Below, piece after piece: positions 1 through 10,580 of a DNA stretch of 10,580 bases. Origin of the DNA: a virus. Taxonomy: Duplodnaviria > Heunggongvirae > Uroviricota > Caudoviricetes. Under the pieces are notes generated by a model, which saw only the letters and a program-made list of their open reading frames with translations, was not told the origin of the DNA and ran no database searches. The stretch is from the IMG/VR virus record IMGVR_UViG_2602041863_000006. The stretch is one strand, 5' to 3'. The position numbers and the translations under genes are program-made. Each line of letters begins with the position of its first letter. Position 1 is the stretch's first letter.

Positions 1-207
1 AGTTCCATTCCCCACCACCGTGCCACTTGATGCACCATCAAGCCAGTCGAAATTCATACCTCCACTGTTTGGTCTCCTTAATGGAACGGTATGTGTATGT
101 GCGCCAGCACTATTTGCAGTACCAGATACATTGTGGGTATCGCCATCATCGGTATCGGTGATGTCGTCCTCTGCGGGTCCGGGTTCAGTTCTGGCAACCA
201 TACTCAT
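1..207 (-). CDS. Hypothetical protein, N-terminal 69 codons only (gene runs off the left edge); Gly/Ser/Thr-rich with an AGAHTHT motif reminiscent of phage tail-fibre repeats
   Basis: ATG at 207..205 (minus) preceded by GGAG with an 8-nt spacer; the frame stays open to position 1; an in-frame stop lies upstream at 265-267. Translation: MSMVARTEPGPAEDDITDTDDGDTHNVSGTANSAGAHTHTVPLRRPNSGGMNFDWLDGASSGTVVGNGT. It does not resemble a P2 major capsid protein (gpN), which would be expected after O. Confidence 0.4.
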   Translation of the reverse strand, partial: MSMVARTEPGPAEDDITDTDDGDTHNVSGTANSAGAHTHTVPLRRPNSGGMNFDWLDGASSGTVVGNGT

Positions 208-302
208 GGGGTTCACTCCTGAAAAAAATCGGGCGGTGGGTGCGCGGTGTAAACGGTCACGGAGTCAAACCGGAACACCGCGCACGCCGCCCGCTGACGG
301 GG

Positions 303-890
303 TCAGTCGTTAATCCCCATTACGCGGTTAAACCACTGGGTGCCTTCTTCCTGGCGTTGTTCTGCCATTTCGATGATTTCAGACTCGATGGCTTCGGAAA
401 TGAGCGGTGCTTCACCCTGGACACTGTTGAACGTCATCACCGCCTGACGCTGCTGTGCCGTGAATTTCAGGCGCTCAGTGCCCAGGCTTGCCGGGGTGTC
501 GGTCATCGCCAGCCCGACCAGATAGGCGCGCCCGTTAACGGAGAACTGCGGGTGCAGTTCGATACTGGAATAGATTTTCTTGCCGTCCGCGACAAGCTGC
601 TTCATGCGCTCGGTCGGTTCGATTTCTGCATACAGCGCAGTACGTCCGGCCAGCGGACCTTCCGTAATGTCTTCCGTACTCAGTGCGGTGACATCGCCCA
701 TTGCGGAAAATTCGCTTGACGGGCATGGCGAGAGATAGTGCTCAACGTTCACGCGGGCAGCGTAAACATCCGGGTTGAAGTTCTCGGCGGCTTCACGCAG
801 ATGCACCGGACTGATTTCACGGCCATCAACAGTTGATCCGGAGACAGCCACGCGAAACTTTTTGCGGGATGTCTTTTTTTCATTAGCCAT
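303..890 (-). CDS. O: Capsid scaffolding protein, P2 gpO-like, apparently shortened (~195 aa versus ~284 aa in P2)
   Basis: ORF 303..923 (-). The N-terminal two-thirds (KKFRVAVSGSTVDGREIS...VEHY...YLVGLAMTDTPASLGTE) matches my recollection of P2 gpO. Preferred start is the ATG at 890..888, which has a GAGGGG Shine-Dalgarno 8 nt upstream; the ATG at 923 has none. The C-terminal tail is unlike gpO. Confidence 0.7.
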   Translation of the reverse strand: MANEKKTSRKKFRVAVSGSTVDGREISPVHLREAAENFNPDVYAARVNVEHYLSPCPSSEFSAMGDVTALSTEDITEGPLAGRTALYAEIEPTERMKQLVADGKKIYSSIELHPQFSVNGRAYLVGLAMTDTPASLGTERLKFTAQQRQAVMTFNSVQGEAPLISEAIESEIIEMAEQRQEEGTQWFNRVMGIND

Positions 891-923
891 AGTTTTTGCC
901 CCTCTGACTGGTTCTTCAGTCAT

Positions 924-3842: not shown

Positions 3843-3868
3843 CGCGCTTCGCTTGTCTGCTGCTTCGC

Positions 3869-3893
3869 CGGGGCATAAAAAATTTATGCCCCG
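3869..3893. other. Perfect inverted repeat (11-bp arms, 3-nt loop) 27 bp downstream of the portal stop; possible terminator or protein-binding palindrome
   Basis: CGGGGCATAAA-aaa-TTTATGCCCCG. No U-tract follows on either strand, so it is not a classic intrinsic terminator. Confidence 0.35.
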
Positions 3894-4316
3894 ACTCTCC
3901 AGCTCCTGTATCAATCAGATAATTTCACGACATCTTCCAGCTTATCGCCATCATCGACGATCAGGCTCTTACGCAATCCCACCGCGTTGACTGCATGTTC
4001 TTGCCGCCTCAGTGCGATTTTGACGGCCTTATCTGTCACCCCATCAAATCAAAAGCCCTCACGTCTTTTTCACGCTCAGTGTGAGAAATACAGCCATTCT
4101 GTTGTGTCGCTGCGACATCGTTCAGGGAATGCTATTTACCCCCTGAAACGCGGGCTGTTCCCCCGTCACCTGCGCGCAGAAAAAGTGCGTTTTTTTGTGC
4201 ACGCACGGATCCTTGACGGATCCAGCCGCCACGCGGGCCGGAAGGGCAAAAAGTCGTTCAAAATAATTGTGCAAATTTGTGCACTATCGTGCATGTAAAT
4301 TCATAAAAAAATTACA

Positions 4317-4339
4317 GAAAAAAGGCCGCTTTCGCGGCC
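4317..4339 (-). terminator. Rho-independent terminator for the ATPase-peptidase operon
   Basis: GGCCGC-tttc-GCGGCC hairpin (4324-4339) followed on the minus strand by a run of 7 T (complement of 4317-4323). It lies 8 bp past the peptidase stop (4347-4349). Confidence 0.6.
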
Positions 4340-4346
4340 ATAAAAA

Positions 4347-6551
4347 TTACGTGTCGAGAGAAATTTGTGTGCGCAGTTGAATAGGATTCAGAATTGTATA
4401 TCGCTGGCGAATAACATTATATAAATCAAAGTCTTTTACCCTTACGCTTATTACCATCGCATATTGCATATCAGGGGCTGAAACTCCCTTAACATGGCGC
4501 GAAGAATCTCGGGCATGATACCGTATATCAAAAACTGGATCGCTTAATAATGTATCAGCACTGAACTTTTTGCTTCTGTGCAAACAAGTTTCCCACTTAT
4601 GACCTTCACTCCTACACTCCCTTTCAGTCTTATACTGGCTTTTTTGACCAAAGAAATCATCTGTATCGGTATCGTCAAGGCCGAATCTTGGGCGGAAAGT
4701 TACCTGCATACCGGCCCTTGTATAGTTTACTGAATGTTCAGGATCTACTGGGGTTTGAATGCATAAAGTAGCGGTAAGCTCAAATGCTTCGTCAAAGGGA
4801 ACATCAGGGAATGGGATCGGTGCCCTTAAATATTTATTTTTTGCTAATGAACCATAGTAAATTACTGTAGCAGTATCATTTGGACAATCGATTAAAACGT
4901 TAGGATCCTCACTAAACCGTCCCCAACCGATATGTTCACGCGAATATTTTCTTGATGTTTCAGCATGATGAACAAGCAACGCTTTCAATGCAATGGTGTT
5001 CAATGGAGTTCCTGATAGAGCCGCAACTCCAGCGGCCGTTCTCAATGCTAATGGAGAGGCATAACTGGTTCCTTGAACTCCAACTATAGAACCAAGCAAA
5101 GGGTTGTAAGTGTAAAAAGGCTCGTCGTCGCTTCCACCAAAAATAACACCATCAGGTTTAACGAATCCGGGGCTTCTGCCTGGGCCAATACAGCTATATG
5201 GTGCCCGCCCCCATTTTTCACCGCTACGATCAGCAGCACCAATCGCTAGCGCGTTTACCATATCGGAAGGAGGTTGTATTCTCGCTGCATCACCGTCCTC
5301 ATTGCCATCATTCCCAACAGCAACAGTAAGTAATATCCCATGCTTAGCACAGATTTGGTCTAAAACAGCAGTCCATACATGAACCTCATCATCACCAATT
5401 GGAAGATGAGGACCAATACTTAGATTAGCGAACTTATAGTCACCACTATCAAGAACGGACTGTATTTTCTTAAGGACATCAAATAAATCCCAATTGCCAT
5501 TGTCACCTGATGTCGGTGAAAGAACTCTATAATGATCTACATTCATAAACGGTCTTTTAAAAGAAGGTGCATTTTCCTCGACACGTCCGAATAAGAAAGT
5601 GGATGTTACTTCATTACCGTGCTGCAATAATAATCCGCTTGTTTCTTTGGTGTCTGGATACACGTATTCCGTAACCCAATTACTCAAGTCAGCTGTCCCC
5701 AAGCCACCATCAAAAATGGCAATACGTTCGGATTCAAGAACAGCTTTAGAATTAGGGAGCTCCGGTGTAACTATATTAGATAACTTTCTGACAATGTTCG
5801 GCTGAGTACACCTGAGAGACGGCATCGGCCGCACAACGCGGATTAATGAAAAATCGAGTGTTTTTTTCATATCTTCAGGTCGCGCGTGTGCAACGATGAA
5901 AGTCAGTCCACCAACTTGGATTCTACTTTTGTAATCAACAGAGACACCATATTGTGCCGCATAGCTAATATAGGCTTTAACGATATCATCGTCTTCAACC
6001 CCAGCATGAAGAACCACTTCAAATTTTATCAAATCACTTTTCGCATGCTCAAAATTGCGTGCTCTCTCTTTTCCTTCAAAAAAGCTAACACTTTCAATTT
6101 CGATCAAATCCTTTTGTACGCCCTTCGGAGCTGTAGGGGAATTTAAAATTTCCTTAAATCTTATAACGGCATCATCATCACCGCTAACAAACAGTTGCGC
6201 CGTTACTAAGTCCTTATTCTGATCGCACTGACGTGCCGCTTTCCGTGGGCGAATGATTACCTGACGGCTACCGACATCCCGTAAACCTGTCGCTCTAAGT
6301 AATCCTTCCGGAAAGTAGCTTTTACCCAAAAACGCTGGGTGTAAAGTTAAATTGAATACACTCTCCCCCCTTGGCTTAGCCGCATCATCCAAACTGCGAA
6401 AGCGTGAGAGTAAAGTATCAATCTCTGGGTTTAAATGCTCCCTTACTTCTTCAAGAGTATAGGGATAGCGCTTACCATCCCTTCCTTTAGGCAAAGGTTC
6501 CTTTTTTGTCAGAACATGACCGTTACCTAAAAGTAAGTTCCTTTCCATCAT
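4347..6551 (-). CDS. ietS: Subtilisin-like (S8) serine peptidase, 734 aa, with a ~270-aa N-terminal region and ~200-aa C-terminal region of unknown function; candidate effector of an IetAS-like defence pair
   Basis: Catalytic triad motifs in subtilase order and spacing: Asp in IAIFDGGLG (D281), His in LLQHGNEVTS (H311), oxyanion Asn in AVGNDGN (N414), Ser in GTSYASPLAL (S496, codon complement of 5064-5066). The start ATG overlaps the upstream ATPase stop (ATGATG, 6546-6551) with GGGGG 8 nt upstream. AT-rich codon usage unlike the flanking phage genes. Gene symbol is from recall of the Gao et al. 2020 system and is unverified. Confidence 0.85.
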   Translation of the reverse strand: MMERNLLLGNGHVLTKKEPLPKGRDGKRYPYTLEEVREHLNPEIDTLLSRFRSLDDAAKPRGESVFNLTLHPAFLGKSYFPEGLLRATGLRDVGSRQVIIRPRKAARQCDQNKDLVTAQLFVSGDDDAVIRFKEILNSPTAPKGVQKDLIEIESVSFFEGKERARNFEHAKSDLIKFEVVLHAGVEDDDIVKAYISYAAQYGVSVDYKSRIQVGGLTFIVAHARPEDMKKTLDFSLIRVVRPMPSLRCTQPNIVRKLSNIVTPELPNSKAVLESERIAIFDGGLGTADLSNWVTEYVYPDTKETSGLLLQHGNEVTSTFLFGRVEENAPSFKRPFMNVDHYRVLSPTSGDNGNWDLFDVLKKIQSVLDSGDYKFANLSIGPHLPIGDDEVHVWTAVLDQICAKHGILLTVAVGNDGNEDGDAARIQPPSDMVNALAIGAADRSGEKWGRAPYSCIGPGRSPGFVKPDGVIFGGSDDEPFYTYNPLLGSIVGVQGTSYASPLALRTAAGVAALSGTPLNTIALKALLVHHAETSRKYSREHIGWGRFSEDPNVLIDCPNDTATVIYYGSLAKNKYLRAPIPFPDVPFDEAFELTATLCIQTPVDPEHSVNYTRAGMQVTFRPRFGLDDTDTDDFFGQKSQYKTERECRSEGHKWETCLHRSKKFSADTLLSDPVFDIRYHARDSSRHVKGVSAPDMQYAMVISVRVKDFDLYNVIRQRYTILNPIQLRTQISLDT

Positions 6552-7630
6552 TTAATCCCCCACTTTTGTAATTTATTCGCGATTGTTGGATGTGAAACAC
6601 CAACTAATTCAGCTATCTTCCTATTTGAAAAACCGTCAAAATGATATTTAATTATATTGAGATCATTATCGCTAAATTCATCCAATGAAACCCTCTCCGT
6701 AATTACGGCTTCTATTAATGAGCTTTCAAATGGAATATTTCTAAGTACCTCATTCTTTTTGGAGAAATTCAAAATACGGTTAATGATGGCAAAGGACATG
6801 CCATCTAATAATGGTGCAAGTTTTTTAGATAGTTCAGGTTCAATATTATGATTGACTAAATATCTATCTATCAGTTCTACTGATGGCATATTAAATTTAA
6901 GGATGTGCTCAAATCGACGCCAAACAGCCGGATCTAAGATATCAGGGTGATTAGTCGCAGCAACAAGAAGCGAGGTCGCTGGCCACTCATCTATGGTCTG
7001 TAGGAGTACAGTAACTAAACGTTTTAATTCTCCAACGTCCCTGTCATCATCACGTCTTTTTGCAACAGCATCAAATTCATCAAGCAAAAGGACACATGGT
7101 TTCTCTTTGGCATAATCCATAACGGATTTAATATTATTACCTGTTTTTCCCAAAAGAGAACTCATTACAGATGAGAGATCCAATGTTAAAAGAGGTAAAT
7201 TTAACTTTGCAGCAAGCCAATGTGCGGACATTGTTTTGCCTACGCCTGGCGGGCCAGAAAGTAAAACCGTCTTCACAGGTTCAAGACCAGCTTTGAACAA
7301 AGAAACAGCATTCTCTCTTTCGTTAACAATTGACTCCAGCTTCTTTGAGATATCCGTATTCCATACAGGTTCTTCAACAATTGCGTTGACAGATGTTTCC
7401 TGCAAAAGGTTTCGTCTGGAGTCTCCATCCACAGGCATAGGAGCCTTACTAGATGCCCCACGTAATACTGTTCCCTCAGCAATTAACGAAGCCAGCTTAG
7501 AAGCTAAAGCCTCATCATTTTTACGGATGTTGTTAATCATCTTTCTGCATAGGAGTGTAAATGCATTTGCGTTGCCTTTGATGCCTTGCTCGATGAGTTT
7601 GAAAAGTTCATCCTCCCTCACGTTTACCAT
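6548..7630 (-). CDS. ietA: AAA+ ATPase (classical AAA clade) with C-terminal helix-turn-helix; candidate ATPase partner of an IetAS-like defence pair
   Basis: Walker A GPPGVGKT (complement of 7232-7255), Walker B VLLLDEFD, sensor and Arg-rich segment (ATNHPDILDPAVWRRFE), C-terminal HTH-like NRKIAELVGVSHPTIANKLQK. Preferred start is the ATG at 7630 (MVNVRE...), which has GGGGG upstream; the ORF-track start at 7675 has no Shine-Dalgarno. Gene symbol is from recall and is unverified. Confidence 0.85.
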   Translation of the reverse strand: MVNVREDELFKLIEQGIKGNANAFTLLCRKMINNIRKNDEALASKLASLIAEGTVLRGASSKAPMPVDGDSRRNLLQETSVNAIVEEPVWNTDISKKLESIVNERENAVSLFKAGLEPVKTVLLSGPPGVGKTMSAHWLAAKLNLPLLTLDLSSVMSSLLGKTGNNIKSVMDYAKEKPCVLLLDEFDAVAKRRDDDRDVGELKRLVTVLLQTIDEWPATSLLVAATNHPDILDPAVWRRFEHILKFNMPSVELIDRYLVNHNIEPELSKKLAPLLDGMSFAIINRILNFSKKNEVLRNIPFESSLIEAVITERVSLDEFSDNDLNIIKYHFDGFSNRKIAELVGVSHPTIANKLQKWGIK

Positions 7631-7934
7631 AAAACCCCCAATAAAACATAAGCTTGTGTAAGCTGGTAACTGCATTGATGAAAATCAGTGCCTAATGTTA
7701 CCACTCTTGCTGGCGTTATTCAAAGAGTATCCTCACTTTTTTACTGTATGGATAATCAGCATAAAATCTATCCAGTTGGGTTACTCGAACATATTGTCAA
7801 TACTTGTTTCCAACGATTGATCAGTTCTACAGTTTTATCTCCTTCACTTGTGTTGGCAGCATGCTTATTCCTGAACCAGCTCGATTACTTGGCCATTTGA
7901 GAAAGATGTGTAGATCTTCTGATGGTTTGTATTG

Positions 7935-7965
7935 GAACGGGGTGCATAGTGATTTGCACCCCGTT
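7935..7965. other. GC-rich inverted repeat between parR and the AT-rich island; possible bidirectional terminator or boundary element
   Basis: AACGGGGTGCA-tagtgattt-TGCACCCCGTT, followed on the + strand by TCTTTATGTT. A second short palindrome CAGGGCG-aata-CGCCCTG at 7988-8005 sits just past the parR stop. Confidence 0.35.
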
Positions 7966-8008
7966 CTTTATGTTATGGGATTGGTGGCAGGGCGAATACG
8001 CCCTGATG

Positions 8009-8320
8009 TTATTCAGGAAATAACGCCCGGATATTTCCGGCCATCTGACTGGTTATCTGTGCGGTTGGTACTGGCTGTGACTCGGGGCGTTCTGTCCTGG
8101 TTTGTGTCACTGATAACGTCTCATCGTCAGCCCATGCAGCCAGTCGGTAAGCCTCTGCCGGATTCATTTTCAGAAGTGCCAGCCCGGCCAGAAAAGCCAC
8201 GCGTTGGCCGCTTTTGCGGGCTTCTGGTGTAAGGCTGTCCAGCCATGTGCATGCTTCGCCTTCGTTCTTGACGGCGGCGGGCTTCAGATAGAAACTTATC
8301 CGTCTGGTTGGTGTCGTCAT
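8009..8320 (-). CDS. parR: ParR-like small centromere-binding protein (103 aa)
   Basis: ATG at 8320..8318 preceded by AAGGAG; starts 4 nt after the parM stop, as in plasmid R1 parM-parR. Weak similarity to R1 ParR in the N-terminal part (RRISFYLKP...GLALL). The ORF-track start at 8455 overlaps parM and is rejected. Confidence 0.6.
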   Translation of the reverse strand: MTTPTRRISFYLKPAAVKNEGEACTWLDSLTPEARKSGQRVAFLAGLALLKMNPAEAYRLAAWADDETLSVTQTRTERPESQPVPTAQITSQMAGNIRALFPE

Positions 8321-8324
8321 TGGT

Positions 8325-9284
8325 TTACTCCTTGTCCATTGCGTACAGCCCATTAACCAGAGCAAACTGTGGCACTCCGTCCGCGATGAAAGTCGCATTA
8401 ACTCCGCAGGCTTCGCGGATAGCGGGTGCCACAATCTCCGCCCCTCCACCGACAACCATCACCCGCCCGTAACCCGAAAAAACCGCCAGCGCGCGGATCA
8501 CGCGTTGTTTCAGTGTTTCTTCCTTTTCACGAATAACCGCCATCAGGCTGTTGTAATGCGCGTCATTGTGGATGTGCCGGCGCAGCCAGGCTTCATCATG
8601 GCGATGTTCGATAATGGTATTGGCGATGTGGTGACTGGTACGCATACCGTTAGTGGCCATCACCGACAGTACGGCATCGGCCATCAGGGAAACGCCTACG
8701 TGTGGATCGCAAAACACCTGGCTGATACCTGCCAGTTGTCCCTGAACCTTTGCCACATCCAGCGTGGTTCCTCCTAAATCCACAATCAGCAGGGATTCAA
8801 ACGGACTCATGTCAGCCAGTGCTTTAAAGCCAGCCGGAATGGATTCAGGCATAACCCGCACGTTACGGATAGTGAATGCCTCACCGTTCTGGTACTCCAC
8901 CGGGCGCATAACGTTCGCTTTTTTGCGGTTGATGTTGGCCATGTCCGGCTGTGCGTTTGTGTCGAAATATTCGCTCAGTGGCAGGGTGACAACCACATCC
9001 ACCTCCTGTGGTGTGATGCCTGATTTGACCAGCGCGTGGTGAATGGCGATTACATTCACATCGCTGTACTGGTATTGCGTGTCGGTTGTCTGGACAAAGC
9101 GATCGCTGACCGGATCAAAACCATAGCGCACGCCATCAAGCATGTAGTTCGCAGGCTGCGAGCCGCCGAACGGCGCAGACCATTCCGACTTGAAGCTGTT
9201 CGGGCTGATGGCGTTGCGGCGTTCGCCGTTCTCAGTCCATGCCAGCTTGATGTTGGTGGAGCCGTCGTCGATACAAATTTTCAT
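8325..9284 (-). CDS. parM: ParM/StbA-like actin-type plasmid segregation ATPase (319 aa)
   Basis: N-terminus MKICIDDGSTNIKLAW...ISPNSFKSEW...YQYSDVNVIAIHHAL closely resembles plasmid R1 ParM (from recall). Size matches R1 ParM (~320 aa). AGGAAA Shine-Dalgarno 6 nt upstream of the ATG. Confidence 0.85.
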   Translation of the reverse strand: MKICIDDGSTNIKLAWTENGERRNAISPNSFKSEWSAPFGGSQPANYMLDGVRYGFDPVSDRFVQTTDTQYQYSDVNVIAIHHALVKSGITPQEVDVVVTLPLSEYFDTNAQPDMANINRKKANVMRPVEYQNGEAFTIRNVRVMPESIPAGFKALADMSPFESLLIVDLGGTTLDVAKVQGQLAGISQVFCDPHVGVSLMADAVLSVMATNGMRTSHHIANTIIEHRHDEAWLRRHIHNDAHYNSLMAVIREKEETLKQRVIRALAVFSGYGRVMVVGGGAEIVAPAIREACGVNATFIADGVPQFALVNGLYAMDKE

Positions 9285-9310
9285 GTCGATTTTCCTTATG
9301 TTGATTAATT

Positions 9311-9430
9311 AATCGTTTACGGGATTTTTAAATCCCGTTTTTGCCTGTTTTATGCTTGCTTCATATATCGCGGCGCGTTTTTTGCTCATTTACGGGTTTT
9401 GTGAATCCCGTTTCTGTCTGTTTTTTGTTT
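9311..9430. repeat. parC-like centromere and promoter region: two ~36-bp direct repeats 73 bp apart, each containing an ACGGG...CCCGT inverted repeat
   Basis: Repeat 1 TTTACGGGATTTTTAAATCCCGTTTTTGCCTGTTTT (around 9316-9351); repeat 2 TTTACGGGTTTTGTGAATCCCGTTTCTGTCTGTTTT (around 9388-9424). The perfect palindrome ACGGGATTT-tt-AAATCCCGT at 9319-9338 overlaps a plausible minus-strand promoter for parM (-35 TTTAAA, -10 TAATTA). Repeat 2 lies inside the 3' end of the upstream ORF. Confidence 0.5.
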
Positions 9431-10580
9431 CCACTGGTCAGGCCACCCCGCAGCAGGTCTGCTTTGCGGCGGGCGCGTTCAGTGGTTTCACTGATTCTCT
9501 GTGCGTGCTCTGCGTCGCGGATGGCGCGCAGCATGTCAGAAAGCACTGTAACGGGTGTTTTCATGGTGTTCTGGTCCTGCTGAAGTGTGGATGCCAGGCG
9601 TGCGGCGGCTTCGGGGTCTGATGTCCCGAGCTGTGCCAGATAGCTGGCGACCGGGTTATGGCGGATCTCCGTGCTGCTTACGCCGTGATTACGGCTCAAG
9701 TGCTGCCAGAGCTGCGTGATTCGGCTGTCCGGGCGGGTATCCGGTTTGCGTACAATTTCAAATCCCTGCGGTGCAATGATGCTGCCGTCGACGTACAGAC
9801 TGCCGCCCCGTAACAGGTGCTGCATCTGCTGTTCACCGATATGCAGGCCAAGGGATTCAGCAGACTCCCGCCATTCTTTAGCGAGTAACTCGTGGTTATC
9901 AGGCAAAGGCCGCGGCTGTTTGCGGCTCTGCGTCCAGTTCTGCATTTCATCACTGCTGTTTTTGGCCTGTTTGTCACGCAGCGAACGCATCAGCGCCCGG
10001 CGTTCGTGCCGTTTCAGTGAGCGCATCCATTCGTTCACTTCAACGCCGTCAGGGAGCTGCGGCCACGGTGTTGTCCGTTCTTCCGGCTGTTCTGTCCCGT
10101 TGTTGTCTGTTTCCTGTACACGGGGACAGTTATTGCCACGAGTCCAAGGGGCGGCAGGGCCGCCCTGAAGGTCAAAACCATTTTCGCGGGCGCTGTCTTC
10201 CGCTTCCTGTTTTCGTCTTACCAGCTTCCAGTTATCCGGATTCGTGCACACACGGGAGGATTCCCCGATGAGTGGCGACCAGATCCCGTAAATCTGTACG
10301 CCCTGTTCGCCGTAATCGTTCAGCTCATCTGCGAGGTCGTAGGCGGTGCGAATCAGGTAGTCTTTGCGTGGAACAAGTACGCCGCCCTGTTTCTCTATGT
10401 AGGTGGCAAAACATCCGGCATCAGCGGCAGCAAGAACCGCATCCATTGCGTCATCCTTCAGCCGTTGCGGGCCTTCGGGGTTGCGTGCCATCTGGCTGGC
10501 AAGGCGACGCAGTTCACGCCACACCTGACGGGAGGGGATACCAAAGAACTGGAACTGGCGGACCCGGTGAAGGCGCGCCC
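9361..10580 (-). CDS. Hypothetical protein, C-terminal ~406 codons (the 5' end is beyond the right window edge)
   Basis: The minus-strand frame is open from 10580 to the stop at 9361-9363; the ORF-track start at 10524 is an internal GTG. Contains a hydrophilic low-complexity linker (QEAEDSARENGFDLQGGPAAPWTRGNNCPRVQETDNNGTEQPEERTTPW). No motif I can name; function not assigned. Confidence 0.5.
   Translation of the reverse strand, partial: ARLHRVRQFQFFGIPSRQVWRELRRLASQMARNPEGPQRLKDDAMDAVLAAADAGCFATYIEKQGGVLVPRKDYLIRTAYDLADELNDYGEQGVQIYGIWSPLIGESSRVCTNPDNWKLVRRKQEAEDSARENGFDLQGGPAAPWTRGNNCPRVQETDNNGTEQPEERTTPWPQLPDGVEVNEWMRSLKRHERRALMRSLRDKQAKNSSDEMQNWTQSRKQPRPLPDNHELLAKEWRESAESLGLHIGEQQMQHLLRGGSLYVDGSIIAPQGFEIVRKPDTRPDSRITQLWQHLSRNHGVSSTEIRHNPVASYLAQLGTSDPEAAARLASTLQQDQNTMKTPVTVLSDMLRAIRDAEHAQRISETTERARRKADLLRGGLTSGNKKQTETGFTKPVNEQKTRRDI

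Follow-up and report, generated by a model that had tools for sequence, protein, structure and literature searches.

The open frame upstream of parMRC in a tailed-phage sequence corresponds to the 3' part of a P2-type gene A

The large open frame at positions 9361..10580, on the minus strand, of IMG/VR record IMGVR_UViG_2602041863_000006 almost certainly belongs to gene A of a P2-like (Peduoviridae) prophage and makes up the 3' 43% of that gene. The product of this gene, gpA, is an HUH/two-tyrosine rolling-circle initiator and is listed as 'replication endonuclease'. The whole stretch of DNA that was analysed, which we call the window, has a length of 10,580 nt. It contains residues 536-940 of a protein with 940 amino acids; the first 535 codons lie beyond its edge. 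The first-pass annotation had described the frame as a protein which it could not place. It is now placed as a P2-type gpA, by PHROG families 91 and 6857 in the visible part and by the Phage_GPA family in the full gene.

The visible frame and the full-length gene

Translation of the minus strand of the window gives 405 sense codons, from 10578 to 9364, followed by a stop codon at 9361-9363. The earlier count of at least 406 codons is right if the stop is included. At the window edge, position 10580, the frame is not closed: it runs off the window, so that the ORF originally listed is only an internal version of 387 aa which starts with GTG. A run of 405 codons without a stop has a chance probability of about 2e-9 with the base composition of the window. 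Pairwise comparisons with homologous genes give dN/dS values of 0.10-0.30, also for the part which has no counterpart in P2, and the frame is under purifying selection. The low chance of such a run and the low dN/dS together demonstrate a genuine coding region rather than a chance ORF: the large open frame reported at first is real.

Two PHROGs profiles match the whole visible part: phrog_6857 (E=3e-229, profile positions 456-855 of 855) and phrog_91, 'nicking at origin of replication' (E=1e-92, positions 501-852 of 852). As both alignments fall in the C-terminal halves of the profiles, what is visible is the rear half of a longer protein. A megablast search with positions 9200-10580 finds a match in 1,580 of 5,426 complete E. 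coli genomes, nearly always in the chromosome and under the name 'replication endonuclease'; over 1,400 complete genomes of E. coli carry this annotation. The best locus is NZ_CP024232.1, with 99.7% identity over 9200-10580 and 99.9% over 7700-10580. It supplies the whole gene, with 940 codons, whose product (WP_047661184.1) is also annotated as 'replication endonuclease'. This protein shows 3 amino acid differences from the visible part in 405 residues (99.3% identical).

Recovery of the full gene from flanking sequence and a search with Pfam Phage_GPA (PF05840) had been suggested at the outset. We carried them out on the 99.9% identical locus. The full-length WP_047661184.1 belongs to this family: PF05840 covers residues 179-503 with E=8.3e-129 and 429.6 bits, the cut-off being 31.4. 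Its catalytic motifs are an HUH site, HWH, at residues 437-439 and a YxxxY pair, Y491-IAT-Y495 (YIATY, 491-495). Since the window begins at residue 536 of the 940-aa protein, these motifs lie 33-100 residues outside its edge. The first-pass annotation was correct in seeing no YxxxY pair in the visible part, as a motif check of the 405 residues confirms, but its use of this absence to doubt a gpA assignment is due to an artefact: the window edge falls just after the catalytic domain. For the same reason Pfam is silent in the visible part; neither the 405 residues nor their sub-segments gave anything usable against Pfam, NCBIfam and PADLOC, even at E<=10. Judging from the copy in the near-identical genome, the catalytic half of gpA outside the window would carry the motifs given above.

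Other searches gave a similar picture. With tblastn 266 phage records are matched, mostly across visible aa 1-265. In a search of 5.8 billion proteins 120 homologues were listed, and every named one is a replication endonuclease or replication protein A, with the exception of one Dam methyltransferase. The full-length protein also has a sub-threshold match to Pfam REP_ORF2-G2P, and it has no match below E=0.37 in a sequence search of the PDB. A protein which had seemed unplaceable or novel thus matches a well-characterised family clearly and over its full length, in an ordinary context.

Bacteriophage P2 gpA (AAD03306.1, 761 aa) is 31% identical to residues 77-744 of the 940-aa homologue (BLASTP, 687 columns, E=3e-79). 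The full-length homologue shares with it the Phage_GPA domain, the HUH motif and the YxxxY pair, and aligns with the HWH and YIAKY region of P2. An ori nick motif with an adjacent hairpin is found at the equivalent place of the coding sequence. The map position is also the same: it is the last essential early gene, beside the accessory hotspot and cos. From its place beyond the hotspot and its transcription toward cos, the frame had already been suggested to be a homologue of gene A; the PHROGs matches, Phage_GPA in the full-length protein, the alignment with P2 and the synteny all agree with that guess. The two genes differ in length, 940 aa here and 761 aa in P2, and at its C-terminus the protein here has a further region of about 195 aa, which contains a conserved domain of some 110 aa. 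Furthermore, the early operon of the complete locus (NZ_CP024232.1) has no annotated gpB homologue, and the gene is followed by parMR and IetAS, whereas orf91, tin and old are found in P2.

Essentially the same protein occurs in other isolates. The replication protein of Escherichia phage PhiR44_2 (XSB42701.1, 946 aa), which was deposited as a complete phage genome, is 96.8% identical over the visible 405 aa and shares with WP_047661184.1 the arrangement gpA-parM-parR. The gpA of Klebsiella Gegevirus (e.g. ST258-KPC3phi16.1, QBP27937.1, 794 aa) has 44-54% identity over visible aa 1-261. It has the identical variant of the nick motif, with 30 identical nt including all third positions. However, it does not have the C-terminal domain of about 110 aa, the genes downstream are DinI/tum-like instead of parMR, and its hairpin stem is GGGCGC/GCGCCC, compared with GGGCGGC/GCCGCCC here. 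The gpA of phiX174 and other two-tyrosine HUH Rep proteins have the same catalytic logic, with an HUH metal site and YxxxY. They are much smaller proteins with a different origin architecture, and no sequence similarity to them is detectable in the visible part.

A P2-type replication origin inside the coding sequence

The gpA gene carries the phage replication origin within its own coding sequence, at positions 10126-10165. A nick motif of the P2 type, CTTGGACTCGTGGCAATAACTGT, is located at 10126..10148 on the minus strand; it was found by alignment to the P2 'nick site at ori' and by a pattern search, which gives one match in the window and none in 200 shuffles. The P2 motif is CTCGGAGTCCTGTCAATAACTGT. 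Immediately 5' of it, at 10149..10165 on the same strand, a GC-rich hairpin can be read from the sequence, GGGCGGC cct GCCGCCC; 3 nt separate its end from the GGA of the motif. The P2 record AF063097 annotates 'nick site at ori' at nt 29892, within gene A. Its surroundings, GCCGCGCCTCGGAGTCCTGTCAATAACTGT, align with positions 10126-10155 of the minus strand of the window, GCCGCCCCTTGGACTCGTGGCAATAACTGT, so that the nick position of P2 would correspond to about position 10145.

Codon-aligned comparisons show that no other stretch of the gene is as well conserved as a block of 10 codons at visible aa 143-152. Its identity with the Klebsiella phage gpA is 100% in nucleotides and 100% in third positions, against a background of 60% and 39%; with P2 the values are 83% and 90%, against 41% and 26%. 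When more divergent E. coli gpA genes are compared by megablast, the match is confined to 10118-10167. The peptide of the block is AAPRSPVNNC in P2 and AAPWTRGNNC here, while the DNA core is retained. The origin region is under constraint at the DNA level: this follows from the difference in peptide, the synonymous conservation and the low pLDDT of the region in an AlphaFold2 model, in which the linker encoded by the origin DNA is predicted to be disordered.

The hairpin forms part of the origin as well. We compared 87 distinct IMG/VR contexts of the nick motif and counted a hairpin when its stem was perfect, had 5 bp or more and ended at most 8 nt before GGA. This rule is satisfied by 73 of the contexts, at the corresponding site and with 17 different stems, and by 7.4% of shuffled sequences. 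The stem covaries. When the 91 nt around the origin are folded as single-stranded DNA, z is -1.1, and the energy alone is not significant; our case for the hairpin is therefore based on comparative covariation.

It could be argued that the conservation at 10126-10165 reflects a protein motif, AAPWTRGNNC, and not a DNA origin. The peptide AP-W-T-R-G-N-N-C is indeed nearly invariant in an alignment of 57 sequences. We consider this explanation extremely improbable, as in the same pairwise comparisons third positions are 90-100% identical inside the block and 26-39% elsewhere. The P2 peptide is different although the DNA motif is retained, the adjoining hairpin covaries as DNA, and AlphaFold2 gives a pLDDT of about 30 for visible aa 111-170. 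Moreover, the equivalent position is that to which the nick of P2 was mapped by experiment, according to the annotation of P2 and to Liu & Haggard-Ljungquist 1994, as cited in PMC3986222.

A DNA origin inside gene A agrees with P2, for which PMC3986222, citing Liu & Haggard-Ljungquist 1994 and Odegrip & Haggard-Ljungquist 2001, gives an ori within gene A and two active-site tyrosines. By analogy, gpA would be made from the early operon after derepression and would act preferentially in cis. It would nick a single strand at the ori that its own gene contains, and one tyrosine of the YxxxY pair would form the covalent link with the 5' end. The 3'-OH left free in this way could then prime rolling-circle synthesis by host enzymes, and the second tyrosine would serve for termination and re-initiation. 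Nicking, action in cis and the exact nick position are proposed here by homology with P2.

The accessory hotspot and the C-terminal part of gpA

The synteny of the region is that of a P2-like phage. On one side of the hotspot the window holds P2-type gpO (truncated), gpP and gpQ, as identified with Pfam. Between gpQ and gpA the hotspot contains IetS/IetA and parR/parM, and gpA is transcribed toward it. In the full locus there are small early genes upstream of gpA, a Cox/repressor pair and an integrase next to pheA. Thus, as on the P2 map, the accessory hotspot between gpA and gpQ has gpA as its conserved flank on the left. This hotspot has been described by Rousset et al. 2022 (PMC9122126): about one quarter of the P2-like phages of E. 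coli carry a putative partition system there, and the authors speculated that it might permit maintenance as a plasmid. Here the next gene downstream of gpA is parM, at 8325..9284 on the minus strand (Pfam StbA_N, E=2e-82; ParM C-terminal domain, E=8e-69). It is accompanied by a parR/plasmid stability gene at 8009..8320, on the same strand (Plasmid_stab_B, E=3.5e-24), which corresponds to a CDS of 312 nt in the near-identical genome.

The last ~34 codons of gpA, at 9364..9465 on the minus strand, form a tail which is specific for the cassette. Proteins which are otherwise 94% identical end in at least three other tails, and DNA homology with prophages that have no parM starts only at 9464 or 9477. 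Two such loci carry either Dam and an AAA ATPase, or three hypothetical genes, in place of parMR. The alternative tails and the start of the homology therefore place the recombination boundary of the hotspot about 100 nt inside the gpA coding sequence.

A repeat search in this region found two direct copies of 45 nt, with 82% identity and a spacing of 73 nt, each with a 20-nt palindrome ACGGGnnnnnnnnATCCCGT. Copy 1, at 9313..9357 (palindrome ACGGGATTTTTAAATCCCGT, 9319-9338), is in the 76-nt gap from the gpA stop to the parM start; copy 2, at 9386..9430 (palindrome ACGGGTTTTGTGAATCCCGT, 9392-9411), is inside the 3' end of gpA. The palindrome pattern has two matches where none is expected. From their position upstream of parM, these palindromic repeats are candidates for parC, the centromere/operator to which ParR would bind. 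When 9150-9700 was scanned for promoters and terminators, no sigma-70-like promoter was detected; 'terminator-like' sites are present in the plus strand only, and one of them is the palindrome of copy 1. Over the whole window no Rfam family was found, nor the 19-nt cos sequence of P2 with up to 3 mismatches.

The visible protein can be divided into several parts. Visible aa 1-210 (9949..10578, minus strand; residues 536-745 of the full protein) are homologous to the post-catalytic region of P2 gpA. They are followed by a lineage-restricted C-terminal domain of about 110 aa (9604..9933, minus strand; visible aa ~216-325, residues ~751-860), for which BLASTP finds no counterpart in P2 gpA. A few other gpA variants or fragments have distant C-terminal copies of it, with 28-38% identity. 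The domain has dN/dS values of 0.11-0.20 and is under purifying selection. Among 1.84 billion proteins, an exhaustive HMMER search with visible aa 205-340 finds just 20 representative clusters with E<=1e-3. Those of full length are gpA proteins with Phage_GPA, and a few are repetitive junk; none of the 20 clusters offers another protein context that might hint at the function of the domain. It has no match either in Pfam at relaxed thresholds, in PDB sequences or with Foldseek. To judge from these searches, the last ~195 residues appear to have no counterpart in P2 and no assignable function. We also considered that the domain had arrived together with parMRC. This was rejected: it is also found in gpA genes beside other cassettes.

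An AlphaFold2 model of the visible part, based on an alignment of 57 sequences, has a mean pLDDT of 52.9 and a pTM of 0.22, and only short stretches exceed 70. Visible aa 225-290 (pLDDT 72-82) are predicted with moderate confidence as a helix/beta-sheet/helix module; the rest of the model is poor, down to a pLDDT of about 30 for aa 111-170. As Foldseek finds nothing in the PDB at E<=0.001 with this model (best 0.5), no fold is assigned.

Relation to the partition cassette and present use of the gene

The first-pass annotation had offered as an alternative that the frame codes for a plasmid-type or novel protein which belongs functionally to the parMRC cassette. The frame and parM are direct neighbours on one strand, with the frame upstream; its last 25 codons include a copy of the palindromic repeat found ahead of parM, and in 1,338 of the 1,580 matching E. 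coli genomes the match spans both the frame and the start of parM. Nevertheless this alternative has practically no probability, as the whole visible part matches gpA families in PHROGs, and no homology with ParM, ParR or other partition proteins is found in it with Pfam and PHROGs. PADLOC and plasmid-type families do not match it either. The same gpA lineage, with its C-terminal domain, adjoins Dam and an AAA ATPase or three hypothetical genes elsewhere, and it is only in the last ~34 codons that the protein varies with the cassette. Just 9 PLSDB records are matched; of these, the circular pZ1323PEC0009-2 (34.5 kb) was inspected over its entire length and proved to be the complete genome of a P2-like phage. 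A looser coupling may also be imagined, since a candidate parC repeat lies in the 3' end of gpA, about 700 nt from the ori, and the protein has an extra C-terminal domain. The gpA variant, its ori and ParMR might together let this lineage persist as a low-copy extrachromosomal phage-plasmid, with ParR binding modulating the end of gpA transcription. We regard such a coupling as very unlikely.

The gpA assignment leaves another question, which concerns the present-day use of the gene and not its identity. The frame might be a decaying gpA pseudogene in a defective prophage, so that both the open frame and the ori would have historical interest only. The element has no gpN and gpM and its gpO is truncated, a gene which NCBI also flags as incomplete in the near-identical genome, whereas an intact relative, the circular element of 34.5 kb, has gpO, gpN and gpM. 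There are also 3 non-synonymous and 1 synonymous differences with the closest genome. However, four differences are too few to show relaxed selection, the dN/dS throughout the family is 0.10-0.30, and all codons are intact, 405 here and 940 in the closest genome. A pseudogene thus seems rather unlikely, and even so the gene would still be gpA. With its truncated gpO, and lacking gpN and gpM, the element itself is probably defective, and the gene may be out of use.

The 'unassigned' frame is therefore a well-known initiator, present in more than one quarter of the complete E. coli genomes, and with this the matter is closed. It is mainly a correction of annotation: the protein is in RefSeq at 99% identity, its families are Pfam PF05840 and PHROG 91, and its hotspot context has been published. 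If the coupling with parMRC were true, what would be new is that a partition cassette overlaps a replication gene both physically and in its regulation. Besides the explanation of the missing YxxxY pair and the silent Pfam search, two by-products are useful. The phage origin can be placed precisely in the part of the gene seen here, and a covarying hairpin beside the nick motif is supported. In addition, different hotspot cassettes give the gpA initiator different C-terminal tails.

Hotspot boundary, repeats and accessory genes

The gpA-gpQ hotspot, the accessory region of P2-like prophages, has its recombination boundary at about 9464–9477. This boundary falls within the 3′ end of gpA, so that the C-terminal tail of the replication initiator differs according to the accessory cassette; at least four tail variants are present among proteins which are 94% identical elsewhere. 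The gpA stop codon itself, just upstream of parM, is bracketed by the two copies of a 45-nt repeat, in positions 9313–9357 and 9386–9430 (73 nt apart), the second of them inside the gpA coding sequence. Each copy contains a 20-nt palindrome (ACGGGnnnnnnnnATCCCGT), and no third copy of the repeat occurs in the window. These palindromic repeats are likely candidates for the parC/ParR operator.

The hotspot also has two large genes, both on the minus strand, in positions 4347–7675. By their PADLOC matches they are an IetA/IetS anti-phage defence pair: an AAA ATPase (IetA, 6548–7675, E=3e-89) and an S8 peptidase (IetS, 4347–6551, E=6e-41). The cos site is expected between gpQ and IetS, in the interval 3843–4346, which has no match to the 19-nt cohesive-end sequence of P2 with up to three mismatches. 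Two sites in the same interval (about 3868–3893 and 4323–4342) each have a GC hairpin with a T-run after it, and so look like terminators.

State of the prophage and its relatives

At the other end of the window (1–923) the head-completion gene directly adjoins a fragment of the capsid scaffold gene gpO. Its open reading frame (303–923, 206 aa; annotated as 312–890 by transfer from the near-identical E. coli locus L001) is truncated and matches only positions 2–183 of the 268 in the profile; in that near-identical genome gpO is flagged as 'incomplete, missing C-terminus'. The genes for the major capsid protein gpN and the small terminase gpM are absent here, but both are found in the intact relative L010. 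With gpO truncated and gpN and gpM missing, the prophage looks defective.

L010 (NZ_CP148288.1, pZ1323PEC0009-2) is a 34,461-bp circular E. coli record described as a 'plasmid'. The record holds the whole genome of a P2-like phage: integrase, Cox, gpA and parMR are there, as is every structural gene. It represents either the circular genome of an induced phage, caught by the assembly, or a case of extrachromosomal carriage of this parMR-bearing lineage.

The early operon upstream of gpA lies beyond the window, in positions 13491–17112 of L001. It contains DUF4754, DUF4761, MarR-like and other small hypothetical genes; no homologue of the helicase-loader-like gpB is annotated in it, whereas P2 has gpB.

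Origin motif in P2-like phages

Across P2-like phages (IMG/VR loci L011–L130) a GC-rich hairpin comes before the ori nick motif GGAnTnnTGnCAATAACTG; in the window this hairpin occupies positions 10149–10165. Its stem has 17 sequence versions in these loci, with pairing retained. The nick motif has two main variants among the IMG/VR loci: P2/186-like phages have GGAGTCCTGT/GGAGTTCTGT, whereas GGACTCGTGG is found in this lineage and in Klebsiella Gegevirus. These variants may mark groups of initiator-origin specificity.
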